Sequence record: NZ_CP090789.1
Length of the DNA: 64,000 nt
From: a plasmid
Direction: 5' to 3' (one strand)
Shown here: piece after piece, positions 7,437-23,678 of the stretch
Layout of the letters: every line of letters starts with the position of its first letter
How positions within the stretch are numbered: position 1 is the stretch's first letter
Translations under genes and position numbers: made by a program
Notes under the pieces: model-generated
Told to the model about the DNA's origin: nothing
The model's input: only the letters and a program-made list of their open reading frames with translations
Database searches by the model: none

Positions 7437-7871
7437 ATGTCACGTCCCGAATGGTTGGCGGTTCGGTTGCAGTTCATCAAGGGTCTGAATTCTCCGACCG
7501 AAGCACAGCGGCTGCTCGTTGAATTGGCTGAGCGGCCCGAACTCGACAAGTCTGACGCGCGGGTGCTCGACCAGTTGATGCGGATGGAACGTATCAACAT
7601 GAAGGCCGATGAGGCGAAGGCGGAGACGGAAAAGCTTCTGCGCGCGCGCCGTCTTGAACAAGATAGGGCGCGCGCGAAGGCACACGCGGAGTTGGGTGCT
7701 GTGGTGGCGGGAGTCGGATTTCCGCTGGAGCGGGACTTGTTGGCGGGCGTGCTGCTCGAAGCGCTCGAACGCCTCAAGGCCGACCCGGCGTTGCGCACGG
7801 GTTGGAGTTCGCGCGGCGTGGCACAGGCGAAGCCAAGCGATGCGGAGGAGAAAAAGGCCGACGCGGCCTAA
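7437..7871 (+). CDS. Small relaxosome-accessory-like protein (TraC/TraD/MobC-position gene), divergent from traA across oriT
   Basis: 144-aa ORF from the internal ATG with a GAGGT RBS. The listed ORF starts earlier at 7260, but the upstream part has no RBS and overlaps the oriT region. The protein is acidic/coiled-coil. Assignment is by position only. Confidence 0.45.
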   Translation: MSRPEWLAVRLQFIKGLNSPTEAQRLLVELAERPELDKSDARVLDQLMRMERINMKADEAKAETEKLLRARRLEQDRARAKAHAELGAVVAGVGFPLERDLLAGVLLEALERLKADPALRTGWSSRGVAQAKPSDAEEKKADAA

Positions 7872-7928: not shown

Positions 7929-9920
7929 TTACTGACCGTCCGGTGCGTCTGCTGCTTCCGCCTCACGCGTCGGGTGTTCGATCGGGAAAGTCGATTCCCG
8001 ATTCGTCAGCACATCTGGAAGCCATCCCGATTCAACCAGTTGCATTTCGGCCGCTGCGGCGGCATCTCCCTTCTTCATCGAACCCAGCGGCATTGCGGCC
8101 GTCGCCGAAACCGCCTGTGCCATTACATCGACGATGCGCTGTTTCGACACGTGGTTGAGGTAACTCGTCTGCGTCGGCTTCCAGTAGCGCACCATGTCCA
8201 CGTCGAGCACGTCGGCCAGCGTGTTGACGGCGTGCGGCTTGTTCTCCCGCGCGATTCCGTTGACCATCGCCGCAACGCAGAAGGCAAACAGGCCCGACAG
8301 AGTGTCGTCTGTCGCTTCCAGCAGCCACGGCAGCAAGTGGCGCAGTTCGTTCGGCATCGTTGCCGCCCATTTCGTGCGCTCGGCGTCGATGATCCGCCAT
8401 GCCGTACTGTCGGTCATGTCATCCGCAACGCTGGAGAGTTGGTCCAGACTCGGCCGGAAAGTCGCTTCGAGCGCGTGGTATTCGCGCCAATGATCGTCAA
8501 ACTGTTCCTCGAACACGTCAGGAATCATCGTGTACAAGAGGTAGGCCATCGCCACGTCCGGGCGCTTCGCAAGCTCCGCCTGCACAGCAGCAGTGCGATG
8601 AGCAGTCAGCCGAACGCAGAGAGTTTCGCTGTGGACGGGGCGGGCTTTCGTCGTCCGCTCGGCCTGCTCGCCGTGCTGACCACCGGAAACAGCGGCGGCG
8701 ACTTCCTGCGGTTTGACAACGCCGCGCCTGACTTCAAGTTCGCCATTTGCGTCGATCCAGACTTGCGCGCCAGCACCGGCTTTTTGCTCGTCGGTCCATA
8801 CCTCACAACGTTCTTCGAACGCGTCCAGCGCTGCCTGAGCGTCGCGCACGGCTTGATGGAGCACGTCGCCGTCGGCGTCCGAATCTTCCGTATCGTAGTG
8901 CGCGTCGAGCGCAGCATCCGCACTCTGGCACGCCTGTTCCAGCTTGCGATGTTCCGCTTTCTCCTTCTTCGTCAGTTCGCGGCGCTCCGGGTCCAACTGG
9001 CGCACACGCATCGCCATGAGCGCCTCTCGTCGTACTGCCGCGTCCACCCACGCCCAACCCTCGGCGCGCACTTCCTCGGCGGCGGCCGTCAGCTTTTCCA
9101 CGGCAAGGCGGTTTAGCAATTCGAGGTCGGCCACAAATCCGCCGTTTCCGTCGCCGCTGAACAGGTCGCGTCGCACATATCCGCCCGCGTCCTCGTAGGC
9201 GTCGAGGCCGATGAATCGCGCGAGGGAATTCGTGGCCGCATTCACTTCGGCTTTGGTGATGACCGCCCGAATCTCGCGGGGGCTGCGCTGCCACTCCTGA
9301 ATCGATTCGAACCAAATCCGCTCTTGTTGTTCGGTGTCGTCGGACAGTGCGAGCGCGCACGCCTGCTCGTAATCCATCCCGTCATCACGAAACACTTCTA
9401 GCAGCTTCGGCGAAATGTTCGCCAGCTTCAATGCGCGACGGACAACCGTTTCTGACACGGAAAACCGAGCGGCAATGTCGGGAATTGATCGGCCCTCCGC
9501 AATGAGTTCGCGGAACGCGACGCACTGGTCGGCGATGTGCATCCCTTCGCGCTGGACGTTCTCCGCAAGCGAGATCGCCAGCGCTTCGCCGGCGGAGACG
9601 ATCAGCACGGGCACGAGATCCGTATCCGACCAGCGGCCTCGGGATTTCAGGAGGTCCAGTCCGCCCAAGCGGCCTTGGCCGGCGCAGATTCCGAACGGAC
9701 GAAGGCCGTTCCTTTGTCCATCTTCATCGATCGGATGCCCTACGAGGTTTTGCAGCAAGCCGTTAGCGTCGATGTCGTCAGCAAGCGCGGGGATGTTCTT
9801 GGCGGGCTTCTTCCGCACGTTGCGGGGTGACACGCACAGCTGGCCAAATGGGATGTAGTTGATTTTCCCGAACGTGTACGGGACGGGGTTGGCGAGGATC
9901 GTATCTGCTACTTGGTTCAC
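7929..9920 (-). CDS. Large ParB/Srx-domain (ParB-like nuclease domain) protein of plasmid leading regions
   Basis: About 664 aa from GTG 9920 with a GGAGA RBS. The N-terminal ParB-like box (GLLQNLVGHPIDEDG...RRAL..A) is recognisable, followed by a long acidic C-terminal region. The ORF track extends the start to 9962 through the inverted-repeat arm. Confidence 0.7.
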   Translation of the reverse strand: MNQVADTILANPVPYTFGKINYIPFGQLCVSPRNVRKKPAKNIPALADDIDANGLLQNLVGHPIDEDGQRNGLRPFGICAGQGRLGGLDLLKSRGRWSDTDLVPVLIVSAGEALAISLAENVQREGMHIADQCVAFRELIAEGRSIPDIAARFSVSETVVRRALKLANISPKLLEVFRDDGMDYEQACALALSDDTEQQERIWFESIQEWQRSPREIRAVITKAEVNAATNSLARFIGLDAYEDAGGYVRRDLFSGDGNGGFVADLELLNRLAVEKLTAAAEEVRAEGWAWVDAAVRREALMAMRVRQLDPERRELTKKEKAEHRKLEQACQSADAALDAHYDTEDSDADGDVLHQAVRDAQAALDAFEERCEVWTDEQKAGAGAQVWIDANGELEVRRGVVKPQEVAAAVSGGQHGEQAERTTKARPVHSETLCVRLTAHRTAAVQAELAKRPDVAMAYLLYTMIPDVFEEQFDDHWREYHALEATFRPSLDQLSSVADDMTDSTAWRIIDAERTKWAATMPNELRHLLPWLLEATDDTLSGLFAFCVAAMVNGIARENKPHAVNTLADVLDVDMVRYWKPTQTSYLNHVSKQRIVDVMAQAVSATAAMPLGSMKKGDAAAAAEMQLVESGWLPDVLTNRESTFPIEHPTREAEAADAPDGQ

Positions 9921-10127
9921 GGTTTTTCTCCGGTTATCGCCTACAGCACACCGCCGAGGCATAAAATAATTATAGGACGAAACGTCCTTATAGTGTCGGA
10001 TTTAAATAAAACCCACAAACCTTTATCGGGTATTCATATTATTTTGCGTATAGGGACGAAACGTCCTATAATTACAACCATGCCCTAGCGATTCCGCCGT
10101 GGGCGATAACCGGAGAAAAACCGTGAA
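9916..10127. promoter_or_regulatory. Divergent control region bounded by perfect 26-bp inverted repeats that contain the RBS and GTG start of both flanking genes; it holds two copies of a 13-bp core GGACGAAACGTCC inside TATAGGACG-AAA-CGTCCTATA palindromes
   Basis: Seen directly. Arm 9916-9941 is the exact reverse complement of arm 10102-10127 (GGCGATAACCGGAGAAAAACCGTGAA). Palindromic sites lie at 9971-9992 and 10049-10072. Both divergent ORFs therefore begin with the same peptide (G)DNRRKTVNQV. Confidence 0.7.
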
Positions 10128-10542
10128 TCAAGTTGAACTGGAAGTGAAGCGTTACGAGTGGCCCGATCATCAGCGCGCGGCCTTCTTCCCGCATTATCTG
10201 AAGCGTCGAGCGGCATGTGCGCAATTGGCCGTCGTGCGCTGGGCCAAAATTCTGTTCCCGGCCTATACGACGTCCGGCTGGCACTTTTATGGGCTGGAAT
10301 CCAAGGGCTTCTATGTCGCTCCGCTGCTGCTGAAGGACGAACAAATCGAAGTCGGTGGCCACCGCATGAGCGCCGATGCGTTCGGCGTACTGGTTACGCT
10401 GGCGGCTCTGGAGGAAATGGGGGAGTCGGAACTGTTCACCGCGTTGCATGGCTTTGCTTGCCTTCACGATGAGGCACGGGCAATTCTCGGCGGCGGTGAG
10501 ATCGCCCGCGACGAGATGATTTCGGCAGAAATTCCGTTCTAA
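10123..10542 (+). CDS. Hypothetical protein divergent from the ParB-like gene; possible KlcA/ArdB-like antirestriction protein (weak)
   Basis: About 139 aa from GTG 10123 (or GTG 10099), with an RBS identical to that of the ParB-like gene. Size and leading-region context fit small antirestriction proteins, but no motif is confidently recognised. Confidence 0.45.
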   Translation: MNQVELEVKRYEWPDHQRAAFFPHYLKRRAACAQLAVVRWAKILFPAYTTSGWHFYGLESKGFYVAPLLLKDEQIEVGGHRMSADAFGVLVTLAALEEMGESELFTALHGFACLHDEARAILGGGEIARDEMISAEIPF

Positions 10543-11105: not shown

Positions 11106-11381
11106 ATGACGCAAGATCTACGGGCCACTGTGCGGCCCGAATGTTTGCAACCGGCGCGACTGTGGATGGAACCGACGGCGGGTGAAATCCGCCTGGTGCT
11201 CGATCGCTGCGGATTCACGCGACGAAACGCAAGCATTTTCCTCGGCATCGAAGAGACCGGCCGAAGCGTGGGCCGCTGGCTCAGCGGGGAGCACTCGATT
11301 CCCTATTCGGCCTGGGCGCTGCTTTGCGCCCGGGCCGGTCTCGGAAACATATGGGAAGAGGGCGGCACCGACGCGTCGTAG
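11106..11381 (+). CDS. Small helix-turn-helix DNA-binding protein (XRE/Cro-like)
   Basis: 91 aa. The segment IRLVLDRCGFTRRNASIFLGIEETGRSVGRWLSGEHSIPYSAWALL looks like an HTH. Confidence 0.45.
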   Translation: MTQDLRATVRPECLQPARLWMEPTAGEIRLVLDRCGFTRRNASIFLGIEETGRSVGRWLSGEHSIPYSAWALLCARAGLGNIWEEGGTDAS

Positions 11382-11741
11382 CGTCGGCTCCGCCCGCGGC
11401 TTCTATACCTTCATGTTCGCGTGAGAGGGTTTGTTTTCGATCGCGCCGGCGCCGATCAGGTCACCGGCCTGGTCGGCGCCGGCGCGATCGAATTACGAGG
11501 ACGGTGATGCCGGCCTTCAAACGCGGCCGCGGAACATTTGGCCGGCGCGGAAGGCTGCACGCATCGCGTGTTCGATATCGGAAATGCGAACCTCCTCCGG
11601 CGTGTACTCCGGAATTTCGCGGTCAATGATCGGATGGCCAAAGGTTGATTCGGCGATTGCGTTCAACACAGCGTCAACAAGGTAGCGTTCCATGGTATGT
11701 CCAGTTCGGTGGCCCGCGGCGCTTGGCGCCGCAGGCAGTTT

Positions 11742-12386
11742 TTAGGCAGCGATGGCGAGGCGGTCGATCTCTAGCCGGTCGCAAGCAGCGGCGTAGTAGG
11801 TCGGATCGAGCTCGATGCCGATGTAGTAGCGGCCGAGCTCGCGCGCGGCAACGCATGTCGAGCCCGACCCAGCGAACGGATCAAGGACGACGTCGCCAGG
11901 GGCCGTGTACGTCTCGATGAGTCGCTTGAGGCACGGAACCGGCTTCTGCGTGGGATGGTGCCGATTGCCGGAATATTCCCAGCGCATCACGTCAGGCAGC
12001 GGCGTAGCCGGCACAGCCGGCTGGCCCTTCGCGAGCACGTACGCGGATTCGTGGCGGTACGCGACAAAGCGCGATTTCGACGCATAGGACTTCGCGAAAA
12101 CGATGTGGCCGACGACGCGCAGGCCCGCGCGCTTCCACGCGTCGAAAAAGCGGTCCGTTTTCGTCCAGCCGTAGAAGCTCACGCAAAGCGTGTTCGGCTT
12201 CATGACGCGGTACACCTCCGCGAATGCCGGCGCCAGCCAGTCCGATTTCACATCGTTTGCGATCGAGCGCCCGGAGCGATCGTGATAGTTGACGAGATAG
12301 GGCGGGTCAGTCAGGACGAAGTCGACCACGCCGTCCGGAATGGACGGCAACACTTCCAGGCAGTCGCCGTTATAGAGAAAGCTCAT
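11742..12386 (-). CDS. Orphan beta-class DNA methyltransferase (N6-adenine or N4-cytosine type)
   Basis: 214 aa. The DPPY catalytic motif (motif IV) precedes the FAGSGST SAM-binding motif (motif I), the beta-class order. No restriction endonuclease partner is visible nearby. Confidence 0.85.
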   Translation of the reverse strand: MSFLYNGDCLEVLPSIPDGVVDFVLTDPPYLVNYHDRSGRSIANDVKSDWLAPAFAEVYRVMKPNTLCVSFYGWTKTDRFFDAWKRAGLRVVGHIVFAKSYASKSRFVAYRHESAYVLAKGQPAVPATPLPDVMRWEYSGNRHHPTQKPVPCLKRLIETYTAPGDVVLDPFAGSGSTCVAARELGRYYIGIELDPTYYAAACDRLEIDRLAIAA

Positions 12387-12857: not shown

Positions 12858-14831
12858 TTACGCCGTCAGGATCATCAGCGCGGTATTGACGGAGCTTGCA
12901 GACTCGGCGAACGTATCGGCCGGCAGGTCCACCCACTCTCCACCGTGGGCCGCCACGAGACGCTGAAGCGCTTCACGCCGGCGCGGACCATTCGCGCAGA
13001 CCGCCACGAGTCGGCCACCTGGCTTGAGCATCTCGAGCGCATGCCGAATATGCCGAATGTCATCGCCGTGCGAGAACGGTGGGTTCATGACGATCCGGTC
13101 GAATGGTGTCGGCGCCACGTACGTGAGGAAATCCGTGTTGATCACGTCGGCGCCGGCCTCGCTGACGCGCAGGTGATCGCACAGGCGGGCGCTGATCTCG
13201 ACGGCGGTCCGCACCGCAGCGCCACCCGTCGCCTCGCGGATCGCGCGCAGGATCCGGCCGGTGCCGGCACTCGGTTCGAGAACGGTATGTCCCGGCTCGA
13301 TCGCGGCCAGCTCGACCATGCGCGCAGCGAGTGATACGGGCGTGGGGAACAGCTGCGAGGCGCTCACGACCTGCACCCCATGCTTCAGCTGCTCACGCAT
13401 TGCATTGAACTGCGCGCCGTCGTCGCCGGCGGCCGCGTGCTCAGTCGTCGAGCCGTTCGTCGGAACGGTGGTCACATCGCTCGGGCGCTCGACGGATGCG
13501 GCTGCCGTGAGATCCGGCGCGGCGAGCTCATCCGTGTTTCCAGCCGGCGAGATTGCCGGCGGGTTGACGCGTTTAACGTCGGTCAGGTAGACCGCCACCA
13601 ATGCACCGCGGTGGACCACCGAACGCACGCGGTGCCGGCCGACCGCGCTAGCGACGTCCGCTGCGCCCTTGATGTCCGGCCGATACCTGCCCGGTCGAAC
13701 GGCGCCGGCGCCGAGCTCGCGCGAACCCTTGTAGTCGCGATGCGTGGCGTCCCATTCGGCCTTGGTCATTGCGTGAAAGCCGGTACCGGGGTAGTTGCAA
13801 AGGGGCGGCAGCTTGCTTGCTGCCTTCACCGTGGCCGCCACTTCGGCGGACGGAGCGCGGTAGTCCTTGATTTCTTCGATGCCCCGTACCGGCACGAATC
13901 GCGCGTTGGTGGTCACGCTGCAGATTGCGCCGGCGGAGCGATTCACGCGCGTCACCACAAGCCACTCGCCGCGTACGAGTACCTGGCCCCCGGGCACGAT
14001 GTCGAAACCATCGGCCTTGATGCCGCCTTGTTCCGCGAGCATCGCGCGCTCGTAGTTCAGTCGGCAATCGTAATGCGCAATCCAGCGTTCCCAATGTGCG
14101 CGATTACGTCCTTCACGCTCGAGGTACTGGTCACAGGTCGCGCGGAAGTTATCGGGGTCCGCGTTGATTGCGCTCCAAAGGCCGTGCAGACTCGACGCCG
14201 AAGCCACCATGAGGGCACGCTCTGCGGTCAGCGTCGGCGATCGCAGCGCATCAGCTGCAGCCTTCAGGAGATCGAGGCTACGCGTGCACTTGCGGCGGTC
14301 GGCCTCGATGCGCTTAATCCGACGATGGCGGACGTCCGCACGCTCCTTGTATTTCGCGTGTTGCAGCGCCCCCGCTGCGCGGCGCTCCCAATATTCGTGG
14401 GTGTCCCACATCGAGACCGCTTTGCGCATGGCGTTGTCGATGCGCTCCGCATCGCGTCGCGCGCGGGCTTCGCTGTGGTGACCGACCAGGATCGGCTGAC
14501 CGAGTGGGATATGCTCGGTGATCGATGTGACGACGGCATGCGCGGCCTTCGCGTCCGCCGCGCGCCGTTCGCTATAACCATCGAATCGGTCGGCACGCTC
14601 TTCCGCGCGTTCGACGAGCGACGTGTCCTCGTCGTCGATTTCGCCGCACAGCTCGATGAGAAGATCTTCGCGGGCCGGCGTCCAGCTCGGCGCGACGAAC
14701 AGATCCTGTTTCGGCGCGAACCGGAACCCGGCATCGTGAACACGTCGATACAGGCCTTCCTCGAGGCGCGCGGTGCTGTACAGACGCAGCTTGTTGTCGT
14801 CGGGGGAATAGGTTGCCGTCAGGTGTTGCAT
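12858..14831 (-). CDS. Fusion protein: conserved plasmid-associated N-terminal domain (DUF3560-like) plus a C-terminal class I SAM-dependent methyltransferase with an NPPF motif
   Basis: 657 aa from ATG 14831, with a GGAG RBS 5 nt upstream (the ORF track extends to 14987 without an RBS). The C-terminus has motif I VLEPSAGTGRIL and motif IV NPPF, which are amino-methyltransferase signatures. The N-terminal ~400 aa match my memory of DUF3560 proteins found next to methylases on plasmids. Confidence 0.7.
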   Translation of the reverse strand: MQHLTATYSPDDNKLRLYSTARLEEGLYRRVHDAGFRFAPKQDLFVAPSWTPAREDLLIELCGEIDDEDTSLVERAEERADRFDGYSERRAADAKAAHAVVTSITEHIPLGQPILVGHHSEARARRDAERIDNAMRKAVSMWDTHEYWERRAAGALQHAKYKERADVRHRRIKRIEADRRKCTRSLDLLKAAADALRSPTLTAERALMVASASSLHGLWSAINADPDNFRATCDQYLEREGRNRAHWERWIAHYDCRLNYERAMLAEQGGIKADGFDIVPGGQVLVRGEWLVVTRVNRSAGAICSVTTNARFVPVRGIEEIKDYRAPSAEVAATVKAASKLPPLCNYPGTGFHAMTKAEWDATHRDYKGSRELGAGAVRPGRYRPDIKGAADVASAVGRHRVRSVVHRGALVAVYLTDVKRVNPPAISPAGNTDELAAPDLTAAASVERPSDVTTVPTNGSTTEHAAAGDDGAQFNAMREQLKHGVQVVSASQLFPTPVSLAARMVELAAIEPGHTVLEPSAGTGRILRAIREATGGAAVRTAVEISARLCDHLRVSEAGADVINTDFLTYVAPTPFDRIVMNPPFSHGDDIRHIRHALEMLKPGGRLVAVCANGPRRREALQRLVAAHGGEWVDLPADTFAESASSVNTALMILTA

Positions 14832-14865
14832 GTGTGCTCCAGGTTGGTTTTTGCTGACCGGGACC

Positions 14866-15335
14866 CAAGATTCTGAGTCCCCGCGTATTGGGTTCTGTCG
14901 AGTCGGCGTGCTGCGCTTCGCAGCTGCCGCCGGTCCCCTTAGTTCGTCGTCCCGCGAACGGACGAGCGCCGGCCGGCGCCGGGTCAAGGGATCACGCGCG
15001 GGGTGGGGCGGGAGGGAGCGCAGCGCACGACACGGCCTCGCGCGCCTTGACGCGGCAAAGGCCGGCGCTACGGTCGCGGAACTAGGACGACGAGCTCAGG
15101 GGACGGGAAGGTCGGTAGCGGCCGCATGCCGATGAGGCAGAACGCCGCGCGCGGCGAGCGCGCTATCTGAGGCGCGAAGCGGCTCAGGTGGACATGGGGT
15201 GGCCAGCGCCGGGGCGTGCTGCGGGACGCAGCTCGGCCCCTAGAGCGTGGTGGGGTATCCGGGCCGCGGAGAAAGCGGCTCGCGTGGCAAAGCGATCACG
15301 TCGGTTTGGTGCGCGAGCCGGCGCGGCTCGGCTCG
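14866..15335. repeat. Copy A of a ~470-bp structured direct repeat (about 95% identical to 18140-18612), immediately upstream of the minus-strand methyltransferase-fusion gene
   Basis: Seen directly by alignment of the two regions. It contains an 18-bp long-range imperfect inverted repeat (14935-14952 with 15085-15102), the 14-bp palindrome GCGCCGGCCGGCGC, and other GC hairpins. The ORF-track entries inside it (14830..15135, 15188..15475 and twins) are duplicated shadow ORFs. Confidence 0.8.
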
Positions 15336-15702
15336 ATCCGGTTGCTCCGGGCCATGAGAAAAGGGGCTTTCGCCCCTTCCCTTACCGCAGCACCACGCAC
15401 ATGCGCCGTGGTGTCCACCAGACCAGAAGCGCGTATTCATTGCTGAAAAACTCCGCGTTGTCGTGGTCGATGTAGATCACTGGATCGATCATGGTCATCT
15501 CCTTTAAATGTGGGACCGCGAACATGCGGTCCCATCTTTATTTATGCGTGCACGCCGAATCGGCGCAAAAAATCCGGGCCGCCGACAACTACCCGAACTC
15601 GACCGGCCGCGCCGGTGCTGCGCAAGCCATGCCTCGGCAGTTCTTGCCGCCGCTAAGGCGACCGGTCTGTCTGCCCACCGGGGCACGTGTCCTCTGCCTC
15701 CA

Positions 15703-17532
15703 TCACGAGTCGAAGGCAAACTCGAAGGTGGTTTGCGCCCCAGCCGTCGTAGCCTTGTGCGCCCAGGCATGCCGCGCGTTGTCCGGCAGGTCACCAAAGC
15801 GCACCCCTTGCTGGACCAGCTGCTCGGCGTTGTGCCCGAGATTTAGGCCGAGCCGGTCCTTGAAGTCGGTGCGTCGCGCCACCTCATCGTGCTTGAGCTG
15901 CTGCTTGTGGGAAAGCGTCAGCGCGCCGTAGCTCAGATACCACCGATAGCCGGCCGTGATTCCGCCGGGATGAAAACCGCGATCGTGCATGTCGGCCAGT
16001 CGATCGGCCTCGAATTCCAGGATCATCTCGGCCGACTCGACATCGACGTCGAATCGCGTGCCCGTCCGAACCTCCCATGTGCTCTTGCCGTCACCGAGAT
16101 CCATGACTGTCGGCGCGCAGGGCGAGCGCTCGGTCAATGCTTCGAACAGCGGGTCACGAAAGCCCGTCCACTGATCCGCTGTTTCGTCCCATTCAGTGCC
16201 GACCTTCAGGAAAAGTGGTTCCGGCAACGGTGCCGGCGCGACCGGCGTGATTTCCGGAACGGAATAGCTCATGCCACGCTCGCAGATGTCGCGGTAGTCT
16301 GCCCAGATCGCGAAGGGCGCCGCGAGTCCCTGCAGGGACTGCATCGCGTCGACGGCGATCATCATCGGTAACGGTAACGTCTGGAATTTCGGGCGCGTCC
16401 CGGCGCGCCGCGCGCGGATCCTCTCCTCTCGATCGATTGTCAGCATGTACCGGACGAGCTCGCGGACGGTCGCGGCGCCGAACGTATCGGGCTCGAGGCA
16501 GATGTACCCTTCTCGGATCGTGCGACCGACCCAGTTGCGGCGCGACCAGTCGTAGCGGATTGCGCGGATGAATCGATTCAGCTGCTGCAGACCGCGCGCA
16601 TAGGCGTAACGATCTCCGTCGAATCGGATCATCTCGGCAAGCGACCGATCATCGGCTTGCTGGCAGGTCCAGCAGCCGGTGCGTGCATCGCAATGTCCGC
16701 GGCGCACGCGCTTGCCGGCGGACGCCTCCTCGAAGGTGAGATCCGACACGATCGCGCAGCTGCTGTTACCGGCATGCGCGTAGATCCGCTTCGTCTCATC
16801 GAAATCCGTGTAGCTGTCGCGCAGACCGGACGATACTTCGCCAATGAACTCCCAGACGTCTTCGGTCGACCAGCCCGCAATCGGGCAGAGCGTGAGCTCC
16901 CCGTCACTGTTGCGGACCGGCGTATCCGCGCGATCGCCGCGCGCGGTCATCTTCGCTTTGCGCCGCTCGCTCTCTTCGAACCGTGTGCCGAGCAATACGA
17001 CCGGCTCGGCATAACCGGCCTTCCGTGCCTCGCGGTACAGCTGGTTGCGGCCGACGCGGCTCGGCTCGATTTTCAACGAAACCGAGCAGTCGGAGTTCGT
17101 GCCAGCGTAGCTTGGCAGGGCGCGGCCGGTCAGCACAGCCAGCTGCCAAGACGTCGCAAGCGACGGCGCCACAACCTGCACGCGGACGTCGAAGCCGTGC
17201 TCGCGACCGAACGCCCCCATCTTCTCGAGCTCACGCAGTGCATGCTCGACCATTTCAGGCGACTCCACCAGGGTGTCAGCCGTGATCACGCAGACGAGCG
17301 GCCGGCCGCCGGCGGCCGCGTGCAGGCGGGCGGCATCAAGCGCGAGACTGGTCACGACTCCGCTATCCTTGCCCGCGCTGAATTGGCAAATCACCATTCG
17401 GTTGTCGGTGAAAAGCGCCCCCAGCGCTTCGATCGCGCGCGCAACGCGCTGGTCGAGAGAGGGGCGCATTTCGGCCTGCAGGAACATTTCGACCGTTTCC
17501 ATCGAATTCAGCCGAAATACCAGACGTTGCAC
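15703..17532 (-). CDS. PAPS-reductase/PP-loop ATP-pyrophosphatase family protein (DndC/IbrA-like) with a large C-terminal extension; start uncertain (GTG 17532 or ATG 17502)
   Basis: SGGKDS-like PP-loop QFSAGKDSGVV near the N-terminus, a Cys cluster CDARTGCWTCQ, and roughly 350 aa of unassigned C-terminal sequence. Proteins of this type accompany ParB-like genes on mobile elements (IbrAB) and act in DNA sulfur modification (DndC). Confidence 0.65.
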   Translation of the reverse strand: MQRLVFRLNSMETVEMFLQAEMRPSLDQRVARAIEALGALFTDNRMVICQFSAGKDSGVVTSLALDAARLHAAAGGRPLVCVITADTLVESPEMVEHALRELEKMGAFGREHGFDVRVQVVAPSLATSWQLAVLTGRALPSYAGTNSDCSVSLKIEPSRVGRNQLYREARKAGYAEPVVLLGTRFEESERRKAKMTARGDRADTPVRNSDGELTLCPIAGWSTEDVWEFIGEVSSGLRDSYTDFDETKRIYAHAGNSSCAIVSDLTFEEASAGKRVRRGHCDARTGCWTCQQADDRSLAEMIRFDGDRYAYARGLQQLNRFIRAIRYDWSRRNWVGRTIREGYICLEPDTFGAATVRELVRYMLTIDREERIRARRAGTRPKFQTLPLPMMIAVDAMQSLQGLAAPFAIWADYRDICERGMSYSVPEITPVAPAPLPEPLFLKVGTEWDETADQWTGFRDPLFEALTERSPCAPTVMDLGDGKSTWEVRTGTRFDVDVESAEMILEFEADRLADMHDRGFHPGGITAGYRWYLSYGALTLSHKQQLKHDEVARRTDFKDRLGLNLGHNAEQLVQQGVRFGDLPDNARHAWAHKATTAGAQTTFEFAFDS

Positions 17533-18098
17533 TGATGGACGGCATCACGCGTAAAGCTCTCGCGGAGTCCTGGTTCGAGCTCGCTGTTCGCAAGAATCCG
17601 TTCGAACAAGTTGAGGATACGGACGCATGCGTCGCCGACGTGCGAATTGGAATCGCACTCCAAGATCTCGGTGTCGAGCTCGGTCCACAGCGCCGCGTTG
17701 ATCTTCTGCCGCACAGTGCCTTTCGTCGTCGGCTCGTCTCGTTCCTCTTCTGGTGGGACCGGGAAACCCGCAGCCGCGAGCTCGCGACGCGCCTGGTCGT
17801 CCCATCGAGTCGGCGCTTCGGCGTCGCATCGGAATGCATACCGGATCGCGGCCTCGCATTCCGGTGTTCCTTCCTCGGTCTCAACCTTCACGGCAACCTC
17901 AAAGTAGTTGCCGAAGCCATGCGTGCAGGCCCGGACAATGAATCGTGCTCCCTGCGGTGGCTCACCCAGCGCCCGCGTAATCACTTTGATGAAGGCGCGA
18001 CACTCCGCGCGGCTGCGATCTTGATAGTTCTCGTTTCCCAGCTGAACGCACGGCTCGTTGGCCGGCGAAGGCCCACAATCAATAATCAGTTTGTACAT
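17508..18098 (-). CDS. Cys-rich hypothetical protein (196 aa), translationally linked to the downstream PAPS-reductase-like gene
   Basis: Good AGGAAG RBS before ATG 18098. Its stop overlaps or abuts the PAPS-reductase-like ORF. At least 9 cysteines. No recognised domain. Confidence 0.5.
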   Translation of the reverse strand: MYKLIIDCGPSPANEPCVQLGNENYQDRSRAECRAFIKVITRALGEPPQGARFIVRACTHGFGNYFEVAVKVETEEGTPECEAAIRYAFRCDAEAPTRWDDQARRELAAAGFPVPPEEERDEPTTKGTVRQKINAALWTELDTEILECDSNSHVGDACVRILNLFERILANSELEPGLRESFTRDAVHQCNVWYFG

Positions 18099-18139
18099 GC
18101 TCTTCCTCTCTGGCGTACCGCGCGACGCGGTGTTAGCTG

Positions 18140-18612
18140 CCCGGGCTCCAAGATTCGGAGTCCCGACGTATTGGGTTCTGTTGAGTCGGCGTGCTGCGCT
18201 TCGCAGCTGCCGCCGGTCCCCTTAGTTCGTCGTCCCGCGAACGGACCAGCGCCGGCCGGCGCCGGGTCAAGGGAACACGCGCGGGGTGGGGCGGGAGGGA
18301 GCGCAGCGCACGACACGGCCCCGCGCGCCTTGACGCGGCAAAGGCCGGCGCTACGGTCGCGGAACTAGGACGACGAGCTCAGGGGACGAGAAGGTCGGTA
18401 GCGGCCGCATGCCGATGAGGCAGAACGCCGCGCGCGGCGAGCGCGCTATCTGAGGCGCGGAGCGGCTCAGGTGGACATGGGGTGGCCAGCGCCGGGGCGG
18501 GCTGCGGAACGCAGCGCGGCCCCTAGAGCGTGGTGGGACATCCGGGCCGCGGAGAAAGCGGCTCGCGTGGCAAATCGATTACGTCGGTTTGGTGCGCGAG
18601 CCGTCGCGGTCC
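18140..18612. repeat. Copy B of the ~470-bp structured direct repeat, immediately upstream of the minus-strand Cys-rich/PAPS-reductase operon
   Basis: Seen directly. It carries the same internal long-range inverted repeat and GC palindromes as copy A. Confidence 0.8.
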
Positions 18613-18705
18613 GGCTGGATCCAGCTGCGAAAAGAAACTCGCCCCGGTTTCAGTGCCTAGCTATTTGAGTAAGCGAACCTGATCTGATAGCTTCTTACTC
18701 GAGAA

Positions 18706-20441: not shown

Positions 20442-20571
20442 CGACGCGCGCAAGTGAATTTCGCACCGATAGAGTGCTCCACGGTCGGGGCTTACCTGAC
20501 GACAGCGATCGCCACCGGCAACCCGATACTTGCGTTACCCTGTTTCGGTACGGTTGCCCTGGGAGTCGGCG

Positions 20572-21483
20572 ATGTGCTATTCGGCAAAGATCCAAACCAA
20601 CTATCGTGAGTACGCGCGACGTTACGGTGCCGACATGGACATCGAGACATTCCGCCATCTGTTCTTCGCGCGCGCGGCCGGAAGCGACATCAGAATTCCG
20701 AAGGCGGTCGACGCGGCGCTCGTAGGTGTCGACGAAGAAATCTCGGCGGCGATCGCTGCGTATCGAAGCCAGCGAACACGGAAGCTGGAGACCGATCTGT
20801 TCGAGCAGCGAGCGCGCCTCGCCGCGGCCGAGAAGAAGCTCGCCGTGAAGACCACGAAGAAGGCGACCGAGGACGTCCGGATCGCCACGGACAAGATCGA
20901 TGCGGCAACGCGCGGGCTCGACGATCTTCGCCGGCAGGACCTGCAGGAGCGTGATTCGCGGATCTTCCCCGGCTGGTATGCGCCCGTGCTGATCGAGCTC
21001 GAAGGCAAACGCCTAGTCGTGCCGATGCGGTATCGGTGCCGCATACCGGGCTGGACCGAGGCGGACGAAAAACAGAAGCCGGCAACCTATAATGCCCGCT
21101 CGGATTCGCTCGCCACGGCCTGGCGCAAGGTCTTCGGCTTCACGCATGGGCTCCTGCTCGTCGACGCTTTCTTCGAAAACGTGCGGCGCGACGGCCAGAA
21201 CGTCGTGCTTCGCTTCGACCCGACGCCCCCGCAACACATGCAAGTCGCCTGCCTGTGGACCCGCACCGAGATCCCTGGCGCCGACGATTTGTGGTCGTTC
21301 GCGGCGATTACCGACGACCCACCGCCGGAAGTGGCGGCAGCGGGCCACGACCGATGTATCGTCCCCATTAAATCCTCGAATGTTGACGCGTGGCTCGCAC
21401 CACATCCAAGCCGGCGCGCGCAGCTGCGCGAGATCCTGGCCGACCGCGAGCGGCCCTACTACGAGCACCAGCTCGCAGCGTAA
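20572..21483 (+). CDS. SOS response-associated peptidase (SRAP/YedK family) with a ~100-aa coiled-coil insertion
   Basis: Start MCYSAK (the catalytic Cys2 after the initiator Met is the SRAP hallmark) with a GGAG RBS. Conserved NARSDSL...LVDAFFE and FPGWYAP motifs align to YedK. An insertion lies between the N-terminus and the core. Confidence 0.6.
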   Translation: MCYSAKIQTNYREYARRYGADMDIETFRHLFFARAAGSDIRIPKAVDAALVGVDEEISAAIAAYRSQRTRKLETDLFEQRARLAAAEKKLAVKTTKKATEDVRIATDKIDAATRGLDDLRRQDLQERDSRIFPGWYAPVLIELEGKRLVVPMRYRCRIPGWTEADEKQKPATYNARSDSLATAWRKVFGFTHGLLLVDAFFENVRRDGQNVVLRFDPTPPQHMQVACLWTRTEIPGADDLWSFAAITDDPPPEVAAAGHDRCIVPIKSSNVDAWLAPHPSRRAQLREILADRERPYYEHQLAA

Positions 21484-21518
21484 ACGCGGGGGTTGGTGGG
21501 GCGGTTATCTCTGTCATA

Positions 21519-21538
21519 TACTGTACAAACATACAGTA
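21519..21538. promoter_or_regulatory. LexA (SOS) box TACTGTACAAACATACAGTA (CTGT-N8-ACAG) upstream of imuA
   Basis: Seen directly, between the SRAP stop (21483) and the imuA start (21557). It matches the E. coli/Betaproteobacteria LexA operator consensus. Confidence 0.7.
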
Positions 21539-21556
21539 TTTTGCGTAACCGACCCC

Positions 21557-22273
21557 ATGCACCCCGCCCTCGCCCATCCTGAAGTCATCCACCCGGCCCT
21601 CTGGCGCGCCAGTCAGCTGGCGCGCTCGAGCGTGCGCGGCGTCGACACGGGCCATCCGGAACTGACGGCCGAACTGCCCGGCGGCGGCTGGCCGGCCGGC
21701 GCGCTGATCGAGCTGCTCGCGCCGCAGCCGGGCATCGGCGAGCTTCGGCTGCTGGCGCCGGTGCTCGCGCGCGCGGCCGGCAAGCCGGTCGTGCTGATCC
21801 AGCCGCCGCATGCACTGCAACCGCTGGCGCTCGCGTACTGGGGCATCGACCCGTCCGGGTTCGTGACGCTGCCGGCGCCGCGAACGGCCGACGCGCTGTG
21901 GGCCGCCGAACAGGCGCTGCGTGCCAGCACGTGCGCTGCCGTGCTGCTCTGGCAGCCGCATGTCCGTGCGGACGCATTGCGGCGACTCAACCTGGCCGCG
22001 CAGAGCGGCCAGGCGCTGTTCTACCTCTTCCGGCCGGCGGCCGCCGCGCGCGATGCGTCGCCGGCGCCGCTGCGGCTCGCGCTGGCGCCGAAGCGTGACG
22101 GCATCGATGTCACGTTCGTGAAGCGCCGCGGGCCTGCACGCGATGCGCCGCTGTTCGTTCCCTTGTCACCCTCGCCGATTTTGTTGAACCGCCATGCAAG
22201 TCTGGATCGGCGTGCATCTGCCGCACCTCAACCTCGAAGTGTTCCGGCCGCGATCGCCGGCGCCGTCGCCTGA
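21557..22273 (+). CDS. imuA: ImuA (SulA/RecA-fold translesion-synthesis accessory protein)
   Basis: Motifs ALWRASQLAR...LPGGGWPAGALIELL are typical of ImuA. It is the first gene of the cassette downstream of the LexA box and overlaps the imuB start. The ORF-track start at 21092 is an out-of-frame-like extension into the SRAP gene. Confidence 0.7.
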   Translation: MHPALAHPEVIHPALWRASQLARSSVRGVDTGHPELTAELPGGGWPAGALIELLAPQPGIGELRLLAPVLARAAGKPVVLIQPPHALQPLALAYWGIDPSGFVTLPAPRTADALWAAEQALRASTCAAVLLWQPHVRADALRRLNLAAQSGQALFYLFRPAAAARDASPAPLRLALAPKRDGIDVTFVKRRGPARDAPLFVPLSPSPILLNRHASLDRRASAAPQPRSVPAAIAGAVA

Positions 22274-23672
22274 CGATGCGCGCGGGCTCGTCGTGCTCGA
22301 GGGCGGCCGCGTCGTGGCGCTCGATCGCGCCGCGCGTGCGCTCGGCGTGGTCGCCGGCATGCGCCGCGGTGGCGTGCTCTCTCTCGCACCGGACGCGCAG
22401 ATCCGCGAGCGTGACGCCGCGCGCGAGCGCGAGCTCGTGCTCGGGGTTGCTTATGCGCTCCTGCAGTTCACACCGAGCGTCGTCGACGCCGAGGAAGCCG
22501 TGGTTGTGCTCGACGTGACCGCGAGCCTGCGCCTGTTCCACGGCATCCGCGCGCTGCGCCAGCGTGTGCGCGATGTCGTCGCGTCGTTCGGCGTCACCGC
22601 GGCGATATCCGTCGCGTCCTCGGGTCCGGCCGCGTGGATGGTCGCCCGCGGCCTGCGCGGCGGCCTCGCGCTGTCCGCGCGATCGCTGCGCCGCGCGCTC
22701 GCGCGCGTGCCTCTCGTCGTTGCGCCGGACGCCCGGCGCTACGCGAACTGGTTCGAGGATCTCGGCTGCGAAACGCTCGCCGATCTGCAGCGCTTGCCGC
22801 GCGCCGGGTTGAAGAAGCGATGCGGCACGCAACTGCTCGACTGGCTCGACCAGGTCGCCGGCACCGCGCCGGCCGCCTACGACTGGCTCGAAATGCCGCC
22901 GTCGTTTGACACGCGCGTCGAACTGATGGACCGCGTCGAGCACGCCGAGGCGCTGCTGTTCGTCGCGCGCCGGCTGATCCTGCAGCTGACCGGCTGGCTC
23001 ACCGCTAAGCAGCTGGACGTCGCCGCGTTTGCACTCCTGCTCGAGCACGAGCGCGGGCGGGACGCGATCGCGCCGACCGAGATCGAAATCGCGTTGGGCG
23101 CCCCTACCCGCTTCGAGGAGCACCTCACCCGGCTCGTCAAGGAGCGGCTCGGCCACGTCGAGCTCGCCGGGCCCGTGATTGCCGTGCGCCTAGTCGCCCA
23201 CAGCGTGCAGGAAGCTGCCGCGCCGAGCGACTCCCTGTTTCCCGAGCCCGGTGGCACGCCGCAGGATCACGCACGGCTGCTGGAACTGCTGACGGCGCGG
23301 CTCGGCTCCGAGAACGTACTCGTCGCAGCTCCCATGGCCGACTACCGTCCCGAGCCGGCCGCCCGATGGGTGCCGATGCGTGACGCGCCGAAGCCGTCGC
23401 CGCTGCCGTCGGACCTGCCGCGTCCGGCCTGGCTGCTTGGCAGGCCTGTGCCGTTGCTCACACGCGAGCATCGCCCGTTTTACGGCACGCCGCTGCGCAT
23501 GGTGTCGCCTGGCGAGCGCATTGAAGGTGGCTGGCAGGATGGGCAGACCGTGACGCGCGACTACTTCGTCGCCGAGGACGACAACGGCATCTGCTACTGG
23601 ATCTACAAGGAGCGGCCGACGGCCAGCGACGAAAGCGACGCGCGCTTCTTCCTGCACGGCCTGTTCGGCTGA
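22194..23672 (+). CDS. imuB: ImuB (inactive Y-family polymerase-like protein)
   Basis: The N-terminus MQVWIGVHLPHLNLEVF resembles ImuB. 492 aa. It sits directly upstream of dnaE2. Confidence 0.8.
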   Translation: MQVWIGVHLPHLNLEVFRPRSPAPSPDDARGLVVLEGGRVVALDRAARALGVVAGMRRGGVLSLAPDAQIRERDAARERELVLGVAYALLQFTPSVVDAEEAVVVLDVTASLRLFHGIRALRQRVRDVVASFGVTAAISVASSGPAAWMVARGLRGGLALSARSLRRALARVPLVVAPDARRYANWFEDLGCETLADLQRLPRAGLKKRCGTQLLDWLDQVAGTAPAAYDWLEMPPSFDTRVELMDRVEHAEALLFVARRLILQLTGWLTAKQLDVAAFALLLEHERGRDAIAPTEIEIALGAPTRFEEHLTRLVKERLGHVELAGPVIAVRLVAHSVQEAAAPSDSLFPEPGGTPQDHARLLELLTARLGSENVLVAAPMADYRPEPAARWVPMRDAPKPSPLPSDLPRPAWLLGRPVPLLTREHRPFYGTPLRMVSPGERIEGGWQDGQTVTRDYFVAEDDNGICYWIYKERPTASDESDARFFLHGLFG

Positions 23673-23678
23673 TCCGGC

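Follow-up and report, generated by a model that had tools for sequence, protein, structure and literature searches.

Two near-identical repeats in a plasmid leading region are candidate single-strand DNA promoters of a separate Frpo-like hairpin family

The window analysed here, a stretch of 64,000 nucleotides of the plasmid record NZ_CP090789.1, contains two copies of a highly structured repeat, and on the sequence evidence we consider it likely that each is an Frpo/ssi-type single-strand DNA promoter, belonging to a separate sequence family. The sequence-only reading had put them forward as candidate Frpo-like promoters, and every check that could be computed favoured this proposal. A suggested comparison with F Frpo and ColIb ssi returned no similarity, as neither nhmmer nor a covariance model run with filters off detected homology of the element to either. 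The elements would hence "work like Frpo" without being Frpo homologues, a limited wording adopted because no sequence or covariance-model similarity is detectable. The hairpin family probably acts as a promoter only while a conjugative plasmid or filamentous phage is single-stranded.

The two copies were delimited as follows:
14846-15345, plus strand: repeat copy A, 95-96% identical to copy B (repeat search and blastn).
18129-18628, plus strand: repeat copy B (repeat search, blastn, nhmmer and covariance model).

The initial description of two regions about 95% identical was borne out. A repeat search of the window gave 96% identity between 14846-15145 and 18129-18428, and blastn gave 94.8% identity over 496 nt with no indels between 14850-15350 and 18133-18628, the similarity breaking off abruptly at the flanks. 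The limits first proposed (14866-15335 and 18140-18612) mark the right regions but fall short by about 15-20 nt at either end. In copy A the family-wide core spans approximately 14850-15180 (nhmmer match 14844-15177, E = 5.8e-82), and 15180-15345 is common only to close Burkholderia plasmids. Family indels that are not multiples of three, together with compensatory base changes, indicate that both copies are non-coding, as had been supposed. An inverted repeat first described as 18 bp long with about 130 nt between its arms is real; in copy A the arms are 23 nt long (14930-14952 and 15085-15107), 87% complementary and 132 nt apart. A second pair lies at 14965-14989 and 15045-15069, and both pairs are mirrored in copy B.

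Copies A and B are apparently members of a large DNA hairpin family not described before. By blastn, the ~330-nt element was found at 2-14 copies per record in 251 PLSDB plasmids. Many Beta- and Gammaproteobacteria also carry it in chromosomal islands, and it occurs in filamentous phages of Ralstonia. A genome scan with the pattern of hairpin 1 only (listed below) yielded 120 loci, 111 of which carried the whole 330-nt element. All copies in pBPSE01 (10 copies) and in P. dioscoreae plasmid pI (13-14 copies) occupy ~500-nt gaps in a single orientation, each about 20 nt 5' of a gene directed at the T4CP/MobF genes. Across plasmids and islands, the element lies 10-40 nt from the start codon and is always co-oriented with the gene. 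The objection that these might be generic chromosomal repeats failed, given that 223 of the 251 carrier plasmids are conjugative and that chromosomal copies precede DUF932 and ParB-like genes. To the right of the core, sequence is conserved only among close Burkholderia plasmids, and islands carry variable cargo there. Copies within one plasmid are far more alike than copies from different plasmids: the two here are 96% identical, and L004 has near-identical sets. In ten Ralstonia inovirus records the element is on the virion strand, on which most of the genes are encoded. There it stands directly 5' of a conserved reversed 95-aa ORF, with a gap of 9-13 nt. It counts against the promoter reading that the NP-2014 phage copy has kept a -10 (TATGTT) and its -35 is absent.

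The structural features are listed here:
14930-15107, plus strand: predicted long imperfect promoter hairpin of copy A (-70.9 kcal/mol, z -6.8; covariation).
14930-14995, plus strand: 5' arm (template) of the copy A hairpin in the predicted fold.
15044-15107, plus strand: 3' arm (non-template mimic) of the copy A hairpin in the predicted fold.
18213-18390, plus strand: predicted long promoter hairpin of copy B (inverted repeats, blastn, covariance model).
14858-14883, plus strand: hairpin 1 of copy A; loop sequence (T/A)AGATTC conserved.
18141-18166, plus strand: equivalent of hairpin 1 in copy B.
14904-14929, plus strand: hairpin 2 of copy A, composed of CGGCGTG, the stem-loop CTGCG-CTT-CGCAG and CTGCCG (read from alignments).
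15143-15161, plus strand: block CGCCGCGCGCGGCGAGCGC, 3' of the copy A hairpin.

Folding, which had been proposed as a check, revealed a stable extended imperfect hairpin specific to the predicted transferred plus strand. For the 501-nt repeat the fold energies were -169.5 kcal/mol on the plus strand (z -6.5 against shuffles) and -144.5 kcal/mol on the minus strand (z -4.1). In a family structure alignment of 50 representatives, less than 90% identical to each other, the ~180-nt hairpin was common to all, with 33 pairs and 92.2% of cells paired, compared with only 35-49% in a slid-partner control. Compensatory changes on both sides were present in 22 of the 33 pairs (176 cells), a level reached by none of 500 shuffles. 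The wobble asymmetry favoured the plus strand (120 G.T against 28 A.C), and the plus-strand fold was the stabler one in every representative, with means of -64.9 and -54.3 kcal/mol. The covariance model scored copy A at 139 bits on the plus and 24 bits on the minus strand, and copy B at 137 and 25 bits, respectively. By these measures, the family hairpin folds on the plus strand. Hairpin 1 sits past the predicted transcript start and ahead of the ribosome-binding site, and hairpin 2 differs in sequence among copies with its structure kept. The core CCGCGCGGCGAGCGC of block CGCCGCGCGCGGCGAGCGC is conserved family-wide, phage included. It counts against the promoter model that the best-conserved blocks, namely the hairpin 1 loop, the near-invariant 5' arm base and the CCGCGCGGCGAGCGC block, are not needed by it. 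The 3' part of copy A (15151-15350) is also structured, with a plus-strand bias.

The promoter-like elements are located as follows:
15047-15052, plus strand: TTGACG, the -35-like hexamer of copy A, whose pairing partner is 14983-14987.
15069-15074, plus strand: TACGGT, the -10-like hexamer of copy A, separated from the -35 by 16 nt, with A15070 and G15073 unpaired.
18330-18335, plus strand: -35-like TTGACG of copy B.
18352-18357, plus strand: -10-like TACGGT of copy B.
15079-15084, plus strand: 6-nt bulge GAACTA in the non-template arm of copy A, where +1 is expected.
14948-14953, minus strand: predicted transcription start on the template arm of copy A.

A search of the stem for hexamers had likewise been suggested, and sigma-70-type -35 and -10 sequences are present on the arm able to serve as non-template strand. 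This gene-distal arm carries TTGACG, a 16-nt spacer of variable sequence and TAC(N)GT, with column counts (out of 50) of T48 T48 G50 A45 C40 G40 for the -35 and T47 A50 C43 N G47 T50 for the -10. The spacer measured 16 nt in 49 of 50 representatives and likewise in 117/117, its sequence covarying with the opposite arm. When both strands of the 501-nt repeat were scanned, TTGACG-16-TACGGT was the only match of at least 7/12. The -10 was present on the plus strand in 117/123 and at the mirror position on the minus strand in 0/123. Per-sequence DNA folds of the representatives had the -35 paired in 85-100%, A(-11) paired in only 22%, and a 4-5-nt bulge placed 5-9 nt past the -10; the region at the expected +1 is unpaired in nearly all family members. 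Against the promoter model, the family -10 matches the consensus at just 3/6 positions, and base-pairing instead of sigma contacts could account for its conserved C and G. A further objection is that transcription from these hexamers in double-stranded DNA could be directed away from the genes. The predicted RNA would have approximately GGACGACGAAC at its 5' end and extend in the direction of the gene that starts at 14831.

The transferred strand was predicted from the following locus:
7152-7188, plus strand: oriT-like site, a perfect 22-nt palindrome (7152-7173) followed by the nick core TAAGCGCGCGTT (7177-7188).
4299-7121, minus strand: MobA/MobL relaxase with TraA-like helicase, diverging from oriT.
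7260-7871, plus strand: traD-like gene on the other side of oriT.

Under the RSF1010/R1162 rule, the oriT palindrome and nick core would set the direction of transfer. The RSF1010-type nick core reported beside the oriT inverted repeat exists, with TAAGCGCGCGTT agreeing at 9/12 positions with the MOBQ consensus TAAGTGCGCCCT (quoted in PMC3832669). Because of this likeness and the RSF1010 rule, the plus strand is predicted to be transferred 5' to 3' towards higher coordinates. The same element geometry relative to MobF operons was observed in three other plasmids. The earlier reading of 7.4-26 kb as a leading region templated by the transferred strand needs limiting, since the traD-like gene, the klcA-DUF3717-korC-like operon and the imuABC block are on the plus strand. 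It also counts against the promoter model that some leading-region genes on the other strand, an antirestriction gene included, have ordinary operator-controlled duplex promoters.

The genes downstream of the two copies are:
12858-14831, minus strand: DUF3560 + SAM-dependent methyltransferase gene (657 aa), first gene 3' of copy A.
11742-12386, minus strand: N6/N4 DNA methyltransferase, further along the copy A transcription unit.
17508-18098, minus strand: 196-aa gene, first gene 3' of copy B.
15703-17532, minus strand: PAPS-reductase-like gene (609 aa), second gene of the copy B unit.
15382-15492, minus strand: 36-aa ORF with an AAGGAG ribosome-binding site (read from the sequence).
15357-15376, minus strand: terminator-like hairpin GGGGC-GAAA-GCCCC-TTTTCTC after the 36-aa ORF (read from the sequence).

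Each copy does lie 5' of a different minus-strand operon, the first genes starting at 14831 (19 nt from copy A) and 18098 (35 nt from copy B). The 11742-12386 product is 70% identical to the only DNA methyltransferase annotated on pBCJ2315, which is presumably the single-strand-specific enzyme M.BceJIII (PMC7736820). The 196-aa protein had no confident Pfam family match. The 36-aa ORF and terminator-like hairpin (15357-15492) appear to close the copy B unit just before copy A. Genes 3' of family elements encode DUF932 proteins, DNA methyltransferases and ParB-like proteins; genes of these families also follow Frpo1 and Frpo2 in F (PMC9849209).

In the mechanism that we propose, oriT would be nicked at about 7188 and the plus strand would enter the recipient 5' to 3'. 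On this strand, 14930-15107 and 18213-18390 would snap back into imperfect hairpins of ~180 nt, with the gene-proximal arm as template and the far arm as non-template strand. The far arm would show TTGACG-16 nt-TACGGT to host sigma-70 RNA polymerase, and the hairpin would be "pre-melted", its -11 adenine unpaired and its non-template arm bulged at +1, which would offset the weak, GC-rich -10. RNA would start near 14950 (copy A) or 18233 (copy B), exit at the hairpin base, cross hairpin 2 and then hairpin 1, and continue into the minus-strand genes: the DUF3560-methyltransferase and DNA methyltransferase from copy A, and the 196-aa protein, the PAPS-reductase-like protein and the 36-aa ORF from copy B. 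The same transcripts may also prime complementary-strand synthesis. Upon duplex formation the hairpin would be lost, leaving the gene-directed side with a -35 and without a -10, so that expression should stop.

Class 2 single-strand promoters of IncF/IncI1 plasmids (F Frpo3; klcA/ardB and ardA promoters; Frpo'4, Frpo*1 and Frpo*3; Samuel et al, 2024) were compared with the repeats. As a positive control, the class 2 candidates (Frpo'4 and others) in T-strand orientation had hexamers on the same arm as here and repeated the -10 pattern, in which T(-12) and the last two bases are paired and A(-11) is not. Frpo'4 reportedly shares 86% identity with F Frpo3, a promoter of experimentally shown activity (10.1101/2025.04.03.647016; PMC12672017). 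The repeats and class 2 have in common a long imperfect transferred-strand hairpin just 5' of early genes, hexamers on the gene-distal arm, a -10 inside a mismatched region, GC richness and the short motif GGCTA(A/C)(A/G)(G/A)T. They differ in the spacer (16 nt here, 15 nt there by the same counting), in arms, apex and downstream hairpins, and in hosts, which are Beta- and Gammaproteobacterial plasmids, islands and Ralstonia inoviruses here and enterobacterial IncF/IncI plasmids there. With class 1 (F Frpo1/Frpo2 = ssiD; ColIb-P9 ssi1-3) they share a leading-region position with the T-strand as template, a ~300-nt hairpin fold (F Frpo2 z -7.35), at least two copies, spaced by a few kb and nearly identical to each other (92% in F and 95-96% in the repeats), and placement before DUF932 and ParB-like genes. 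The sequences are unrelated, however, and the class 1 apex is AT-rich with a UP-like element, whereas the apex here is G-rich; the scan used on the repeats located no canonical hexamers in class 1.

In the Ff minus-strand origin, hairpins B and C are recognised by RNA polymerase, and only a short primer is made. This too is a folded virion-strand hairpin mimicking a promoter, and family members lie on the virion strand in the intergenic region of phiRSM-type inoviruses; unlike the Ff origin, the element has a closely linked ORF downstream, in phages as well. In the IncP-type kor regulon, repressor-controlled duplex promoters give zygotic induction, a mode also used in the window for the ParB-like gene and the klcA-korC-like operon:
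9963-10080: AT-rich divergent region with two AGGACGAAACGTCCT operators overlapping TATAAT boxes.
Unlike the repeats, kor-type promoters are double-stranded and AT-rich, have a consensus -10 and need no hairpin.

Filamentous-phage minus-strand origins recruit RNA polymerase to start the complementary strand, and the hairpin might be a priming signal only, recruiting RNA polymerase or primase for complementary-strand synthesis without functional mRNA, which we regard as unlikely. The phiRSM1 element occupies the large intergenic region flanked by the pI-like and Rep genes, which is where inovirus origins occur. Frpo itself has been described as promoter and primer source alike (PMC12672017, PMC7736820). 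However, a priming site would not need the observed start-codon coupling, with the element 10-40 nt away, always co-oriented and repeated before each small operon, and phages too have the conserved reversed ORF 9-13 nt downstream. Priming and promoter roles are not mutually exclusive.

We give very little weight to a duplex promoter in which TTGACG-16-TACGGT fires rightwards and yields a plus-strand regulatory small or antisense RNA from the structured, plus-biased 3' part (15151-15350), although the hexamers are on the plus strand. Starting downstream of the -10, such an RNA would lack the 5' arm and leave the covarying hairpin unexplained; sequence right of the core is unconserved beyond close Burkholderia plasmids and gives way to variable cargo in islands, and a plus-strand terminator was looked for and not found. 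A folded recombination site or selfish repeat (attC-, MITE- or REP-like) that shuffles leading-region cassettes, with incidental hexamers, is highly improbable. The layout is cassette-like, with one element per small operon, and the greater likeness of copies inside one plasmid suggests gene conversion or duplication, but concerted evolution is known for F Frpo1/Frpo2 too (92% identical; PMC9849209). No dedicated recombinase is associated with the element, its orientation and start-codon distance are constant, and the fixed 16-nt spacing and the conservation peak at sigma-70-critical positions would be unexpected for such a site. There is scant likelihood, too, that the strand is a platform binding SSB, ParB-like, DUF932 or host factors, or a roadblock stalling synthesis, instead of a promoter. 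Sequence-invariant loops and blocks do exceed pairing needs, and an F single-strand promoter is reported as a roadblock resolved by UvrD (10.64898/2026.01.09.698686), but there it is a property of a promoter hairpin and so more an added role than an alternative, and the -35/-10 pattern and spacing would be left unexplained. Least probable is a structured 5' leader RNA, riboswitch- or attenuator-like in a minus-sense mRNA from a duplex promoter further upstream, which would suit the position directly 5' of genes and the conserved secondary structure but is disfavoured by wobble on the wrong strand (120 C.A mismatches against 28 G.U in mRNA sense), a worse fold of the mRNA-sense strand in 50/50 representatives, the lack of any sigma-70-like minus-strand duplex promoter within the repeat or of any Rfam match to the element, and terminator-like hairpins directly upstream.

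If the repeats are indeed single-strand promoters, the methylase and other early genes would be switched on just after the plasmid's entry into a new cell.

The two structured direct repeats picked out in the sequence-only reading, here called copy A (14846-15345) and copy B (18129-18628), were recovered both by repeat search (14846-15145 against 18129-18428, 96% identity) and by blastn (14850-15350 against 18133-18628, 94.8% identity, gap-free), and pairwise alignment showed that their similarity is lost abruptly in the flanks. The long-range inverted repeat described inside each copy proved to be two nested pairs of arms per copy (in copy A, 14930-14952 with 15085-15107 and 14965-14989 with 15045-15069). 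We consider these repeats likely to be single-strand promoters of a plasmid leading region, and members of a widespread sequence family of which we found no description in the literature; a role in priming only is the main alternative. That they act as promoters, where transcription starts and which strand is transferred are points that we infer. Each repeat lies, as had been proposed, just 5' of a different minus-strand operon:

14831 (start codon), minus strand: DUF3560 and methyltransferase gene, 657 aa, 19 nt from the end of copy A
15357-15492, minus strand: previously unlisted 36-aa ORF (MIDPVIYIDHDNAEFFSNEYALLVWWTPRRMCVVLR) and terminator, with a strong AAGGAG ribosome-binding site
18098 (start codon), minus strand: 196-aa gene, 35 nt from the end of copy B, followed by a 609-aa PAPS-reductase-like gene

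The 36-aa ORF, and after it a terminator-like GC hairpin (15357-15376, minus strand) with TTTTCTC, lie between the PAPS-reductase-like gene and copy A and close the copy-B unit. The final ~165 nt of the window repeat, whose folding likewise favours the plus strand, are common to close relatives only. Degenerate internal copies of the repeat's own 5' motifs occur in its 3' part (14905-14925, in hairpin 2, resembles 15213-15233, and 15177-15191 resembles 15273-15287), and the copies at 15177-15287 suggest that part of the element was duplicated in tandem long ago. Neither nhmmer nor the covariance model found a third family copy in the window. The window resembles Burkholderia cepacia-complex plasmid sequence, with 89-93% identity to parts of plasmids from B. 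pseudomultivorans and B. contaminans. At both hairpin apices there is a G-quadruplex-type run, GGGGTGGGGCGGGAGGG (15000-15016 and 18283-18299, plus strand); it was rejected as a family feature because it was found in only 4/123 members, from the window and the B. contaminans plasmid.

An RSF1010-type nick core had been reported 3' of an oriT inverted repeat, and a palindrome followed by a MOBQ-like match was indeed present between the relaxase and traD-like genes:

4299-7121, minus strand: MobA/MobL relaxase fused to a TraA-type helicase
7152-7188, plus strand: oriT-like site, a 22-nt perfect palindrome (7152-7173) and then TAAGCGCGCGTT (7177-7188)
7260-7871, plus strand: traD-like gene

In RSF1010/R1162, the nicked strand carries the inverted repeat 5' of the nick, and this repeat is the last part to be transferred; mobA diverges from oriT, and mobC is on the leading side. 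Applied to the window oriT, this rule predicts that the plus strand is transferred towards higher coordinates and serves as the template for the downstream minus-strand genes. The nick site is putative: TAAGCGCGCGTT agrees at 9/12 positions with the MOBQ nick core consensus TAAGTGCGCCCT quoted in PMC3832669. A plus-strand oriT, a diverging relaxase and minus-strand genes together would place the repeats, as the sequence-only reading had it, in a leading region whose transferred strand is the template. The same geometry of element, gene and relaxase was found relative to the MobF operons of pBPSE01, P. dioscoreae pI and pBCJ2315.

Several other features of this part of the plasmid were recorded. 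A weak covariance-model match at 9910-10129 was rejected as a family member, being an AT-rich divergent duplex promoter and operator region. Its 9963-10080 portion (~44% GC) separates a ParB-like gene (start 9962, minus strand) from an antirestriction-DUF3717-KorC-like operon (plus strand), and the palindrome AGGACGAAACGTCCT occurs in it twice (9974-9988 and 10053-10067), each time overlapping a TATAAT box. It looks like a set of duplex promoters under repressor control, which would give the same leading region a second route to early expression. A structured stretch at 11249-11741, found by sliding fold of the leading region, was likewise set aside as KorC-like coding sequence plus a palindromic terminator; the KorC-like XRE gene (plus strand, within 11106-11500) is similar to IncP-1 korC regions, and the ~60-nt near-perfect palindrome after it (~11435-11500) looks like a bidirectional terminator. 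Just past copy B, at 20530-26828 (plus strand), lie an SRAP (SOS-response-associated peptidase) gene and then an imuA-imuB-dnaE2-type mutagenesis cassette, a cassette that also accompanies the element in pBPSE01 and pBCJ2315. Rfam matches at gathering score were obtained at 31053-31244 (plus strand) for isrK (31053-31126, 62 bits) and C4 antisense RNA (31152-31244, 67.5 bits), the RNA pair that characterises P1/P7-type phage immunity regions and in this case lies on Burkholderia plasmid-like sequence.

Each copy folded far better than shuffled sequences, and the whole repeat gave -169.5 kcal/mol (z -6.5) on the plus strand and -144.5 kcal/mol (z -4.1) on the minus strand. For the family, 123 distinct copies were reduced to 50 representatives of <90% identity, and the hairpin region was aligned by MAFFT. 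RNAalifold assigned 26 pairs to this alignment, 17 of them with compensatory changes. A hand-written 33-pair structure was 92.2% paired, vs 35-49% when the 3' partner was slid by 1-3 columns; changes on both sides were seen at 22 pairs (176 cells), and 0/500 column shuffles reached any of the five measures. Paired cells held 120 G.T against 28 A.C. The plus strand was the more stable in 50/50 representatives (mean -64.9 vs -54.3 kcal/mol, DNA parameters), as it was for the long hairpin of copy A (14930-15107; -70.9 vs -59.6 kcal/mol), and with the covariance model the two window copies reached 139 and 137 bits on the plus strand, vs 24-25 bits on the minus strand. The G.T excess, the stabilities and the covariance scores therefore identify the folding strand as the plus strand, the predicted transferred strand, so that the stable, extended and imperfect hairpin anticipated there was found. 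A leader structure in the minus-sense mRNA is argued against by the same data.

The -35/-10-like hexamers expected in the stem were also found; they lie on its gene-distal arm, and the -10 is mismatched. In the alignment, this arm reads CCTTGAC(G), 16 nt of variable sequence and GCTAC(N)GTCGCG on the plus strand; the columns (n = 50) are T48 T48 G50 A45 C40 G40 for the -35 and T47 A50 C43 N G47 T50 for the -10, and the spacer is 16 nt in 49/50 representatives and in all 117 copies matched by regular expression. Copy A carries:

15047-15052, plus strand: -35-like TTGACG
15069-15074, plus strand: -10-like TACGGT

The distal arm can mimic the non-template strand because it runs 5' to 3' with transcription, which would proceed 3' to 5' along the gene-proximal arm, from the loop towards the base. 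In a relaxed scan, TTGACG/TACGGT was the sole candidate of >=7/12 on either strand of 501 nt. At the mirror site on the minus strand an image of the -35 is present, and TAnnnT occurs in 0/123 copies vs 117/123 on the plus strand. In the fold of copy A, pairing covers the whole -35 and leaves A15070 and G15073 of the -10 free, while a 6-nt bulge (15079-15084) occupies the expected +1 position. When 46 representatives were folded singly, pairing was seen at the -35 in 85-100%, at A(-11) in 22%, and at positions 5-9 past the -10 in 2-33%. The predicted transcript would have its 5' end at ~14950 ± 3 and begin with GGACGACGAAC. No candidate of >=7/12 for a duplex sigma-70 promoter of the minus-strand genes was found on the minus strand of 14850-15350. 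A built-in consensus promoter and terminator scanner returned nothing in the repeat; it is too strict to inform here, because it was blank on F Frpo2 as well.

Similarity to the F Frpo or ColIb ssi elements, which the sequence-only reading had raised, did not materialize. Samuel et al. used BLAST E < 1e-6 as the homology criterion for such elements. With nhmmer, our family profile had no match at E <= 10 in F 50-68 kb, and its best match in the published Frpo/ssi sequences (E 0.84) fell on the wrong strand. With its filters off, the covariance model reached at best 6.1 bits (E 1.1) across the F leading region and published sequences. The F leading region searched includes class 1 (Frpo1/2), class 2 (Frpo3) and a class 3 homologue; for class 2, no homology was detected to F Frpo3 (record L009, which contains the F leading region; nhmmer and covariance model) or, in the published-sequence search, to Frpo'4, Frpo*1 or Frpo*3. 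The hexamers of F Frpo2, the class 1 positive control for arm geometry, were not identifiable by the relaxed scan, and published class 2 sequences were used as the control in its place. In these (Samuel et al., T-strand orientation), the hexamers lie on the same arm as in our family, for example TTGCAT-15-TAAGAT and TTGTCT-15-TACAGT, with a spacer of 15 nt where the family has 16. As to sequence and structure, only the pairing pattern at the -10 and a 9-nt GGCTAnnnT motif are common to both. Frpo'4 reportedly shares 86% identity with F Frpo3, for which experiments have established the start site and the function (10.1101/2025.04.03.647016; PMC12672017). By this analogy the element appears to work like a class 2 ssDNA promoter, because the arm and pairing pattern matches, while failing the homology test for all known classes, because HMM and covariance searches were blank.

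By blastn, the element was found in 251 PLSDB records, 223 of them predicted conjugative, at up to 14 places per record, in Burkholderia, Paraburkholderia, Ralstonia, Pandoraea, Mycetohabitans, Pseudomonas, Citrobacter, Enterobacter, Klebsiella and Salmonella. B. pseudomallei pBPSE01 has 10 copies and P. dioscoreae plasmid pI 13-14, in regularly spaced gaps of ~500 nt; all are in a single orientation, each ~20 nt upstream of a gene, and the genes all head towards the T4CP/MobF genes. In pBCJ2315, a copy oriented as in the window stands at the head of a DUF932-LPD29-...-DNA methyltransferase block. Three further gene-free gaps in the leading region of this plasmid (19420-20128, 22257-22957 and 24599-25049; 450-700 nt) had no match to the family, and may hold further, different classes of structured element. 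A genome scan (one genome per species) with a pattern from hairpin 1 alone (14858-14883 in copy A), without the promoter bases, gave at least 120 loci, and a profile HMM found the whole ~330-nt element in 111 of the 120 listed. Among the matches listed were Variovorax, Achromobacter, Stenotrophomonas, Stutzerimonas, Comamonas, Delftia, Bordetella petrii, Cupriavidus, Nitrosospira and Thiobacillus, and the gene immediately downstream was usually, among these listed loci, a DUF932 (~275 aa) or ParB_N (~690 aa) protein gene. On F, Frpo1 precedes ygeA (DUF932) and Frpo2 precedes the operon ssb-yfjA-yfjB (ParB-like)-psiB (PMC9849209). An IMG/VR scan with a 14-base 5'-arm pattern gave mostly chance matches; 5 of the 120 listed held the element, none of these on small, inovirus-size contigs. 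Rfam 15 had no relevant match to the repeats at gathering score or at E <= 10 (one spurious 15-bit match) and none in seven related loci, and full-text literature searches for conserved strings returned unrelated primer matches only and no description of the element.

The profile search also identified a full-length copy in Ralstonia phage 1 NP-2014 (E 1.4e-20), and blastn with this copy matched ten inovirus records, including phiRSM1, phiRSM3 and RSMSuper; the covariance model scored the inovirus copies at 88-92 bits. The phage element lies on the strand encoding Rep, the ssDNA-binding protein and the coat and assembly genes, which in inoviruses is the virion strand, and forms a near-perfect hairpin on it (-109.6 kcal/mol, z -12.9, vs -94.3 on the minus strand). 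In phiRSM1 it occupies the large intergenic region ahead of the Rep gene. The NP-2014 copy keeps a -10, TATGTT, with no recognisable -35. A conserved 95-aa ORF, annotated as ORF16 in NP-2014 and unannotated in phiRSM1, lies on the complementary strand 9-13 nt downstream of the phage element:

5332-5619 of L252 (Ralstonia phage RSM1, AB259123.2), minus strand: reversed 95-aa ORF, ~90% identical to NP-2014 ORF16

In RSM1, this ORF is 9 nt downstream of the element, inside the annotated intergenic region. The location and strand of the phiRSM homologues also fit a filamentous-phage minus-strand origin, an intergenic hairpin of the virion strand at which RNA polymerase primes the complementary strand; the comparison is not applicable to the plasmid copies. 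With the element on the entering strand, ahead of a gene templated by that strand, these phages provide a second kind of replicon that enters as ssDNA.

Conservation in the family is highest in hairpin 1, whose loop reads (T/A)AGATTC and which is located upstream of the ribosome-binding site, after the predicted start. At its base, the template arm is nearly invariant (CCTGAGTTC(A/G)TCG(C/T)CC), and a CCGCGCGGCGAGCGC block follows the hairpin. Together with the plus strand-biased last ~165 nt, these parts suggest added roles, which may lie in the binding of a factor, in RNA displacement or primer hand-off, or in a roadblock against synthesis of the complementary strand such as has been reported for F (10.64898/2026.01.09.698686). 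A bolder reading, which we hold to be doubtful, is that the element is an ancient modular 'single-strand entry cassette' of conjugative plasmids, integrative elements and filamentous phages, whose invariant parts recruit a dedicated host or element-encoded factor. The recruiting parts would be those for which the promoter model has no need, namely the hairpin 1 loop, the initially transcribed template CCTGAGTTC(A/G)TCG(C/T)CC and the CCGCGCGGCGAGCGC block, and through the factor the first transcript would be linked with RNA release and translation, with the hand-off of a primer, or with a timed block in synthesis of the complementary strand. If this were true, the near-constant partnership with DUF932 and ParB-like genes would reflect a functional unit.

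In the recent literature, single-strand promoters are documented for enterobacterial IncF and IncI1 plasmids only; they fall into three sequence classes, and have been found elsewhere mainly via BLAST to those. As single-strand promoters, the present family would extend the mechanism to GC-rich plasmids and integrative elements of Burkholderia, Ralstonia, Pseudomonas, Comamonadaceae and Xanthomonadales, and also to some Klebsiella, Citrobacter, Enterobacter and Salmonella plasmids and to filamentous phages. The covariation-supported model predicts where transcription starts, that the -11 adenine is unpaired, that the non-template arm bulges at +1 and that the spacer measures 16 nt. The element would offer a sequence-independent means of orienting leading regions and of picking out genes that are expressed early and probably serve anti-defence, which in the window are two methyltransferases and the PAPS-reductase-like pair. 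One element common to plasmid establishment and inovirus infection would link the two.
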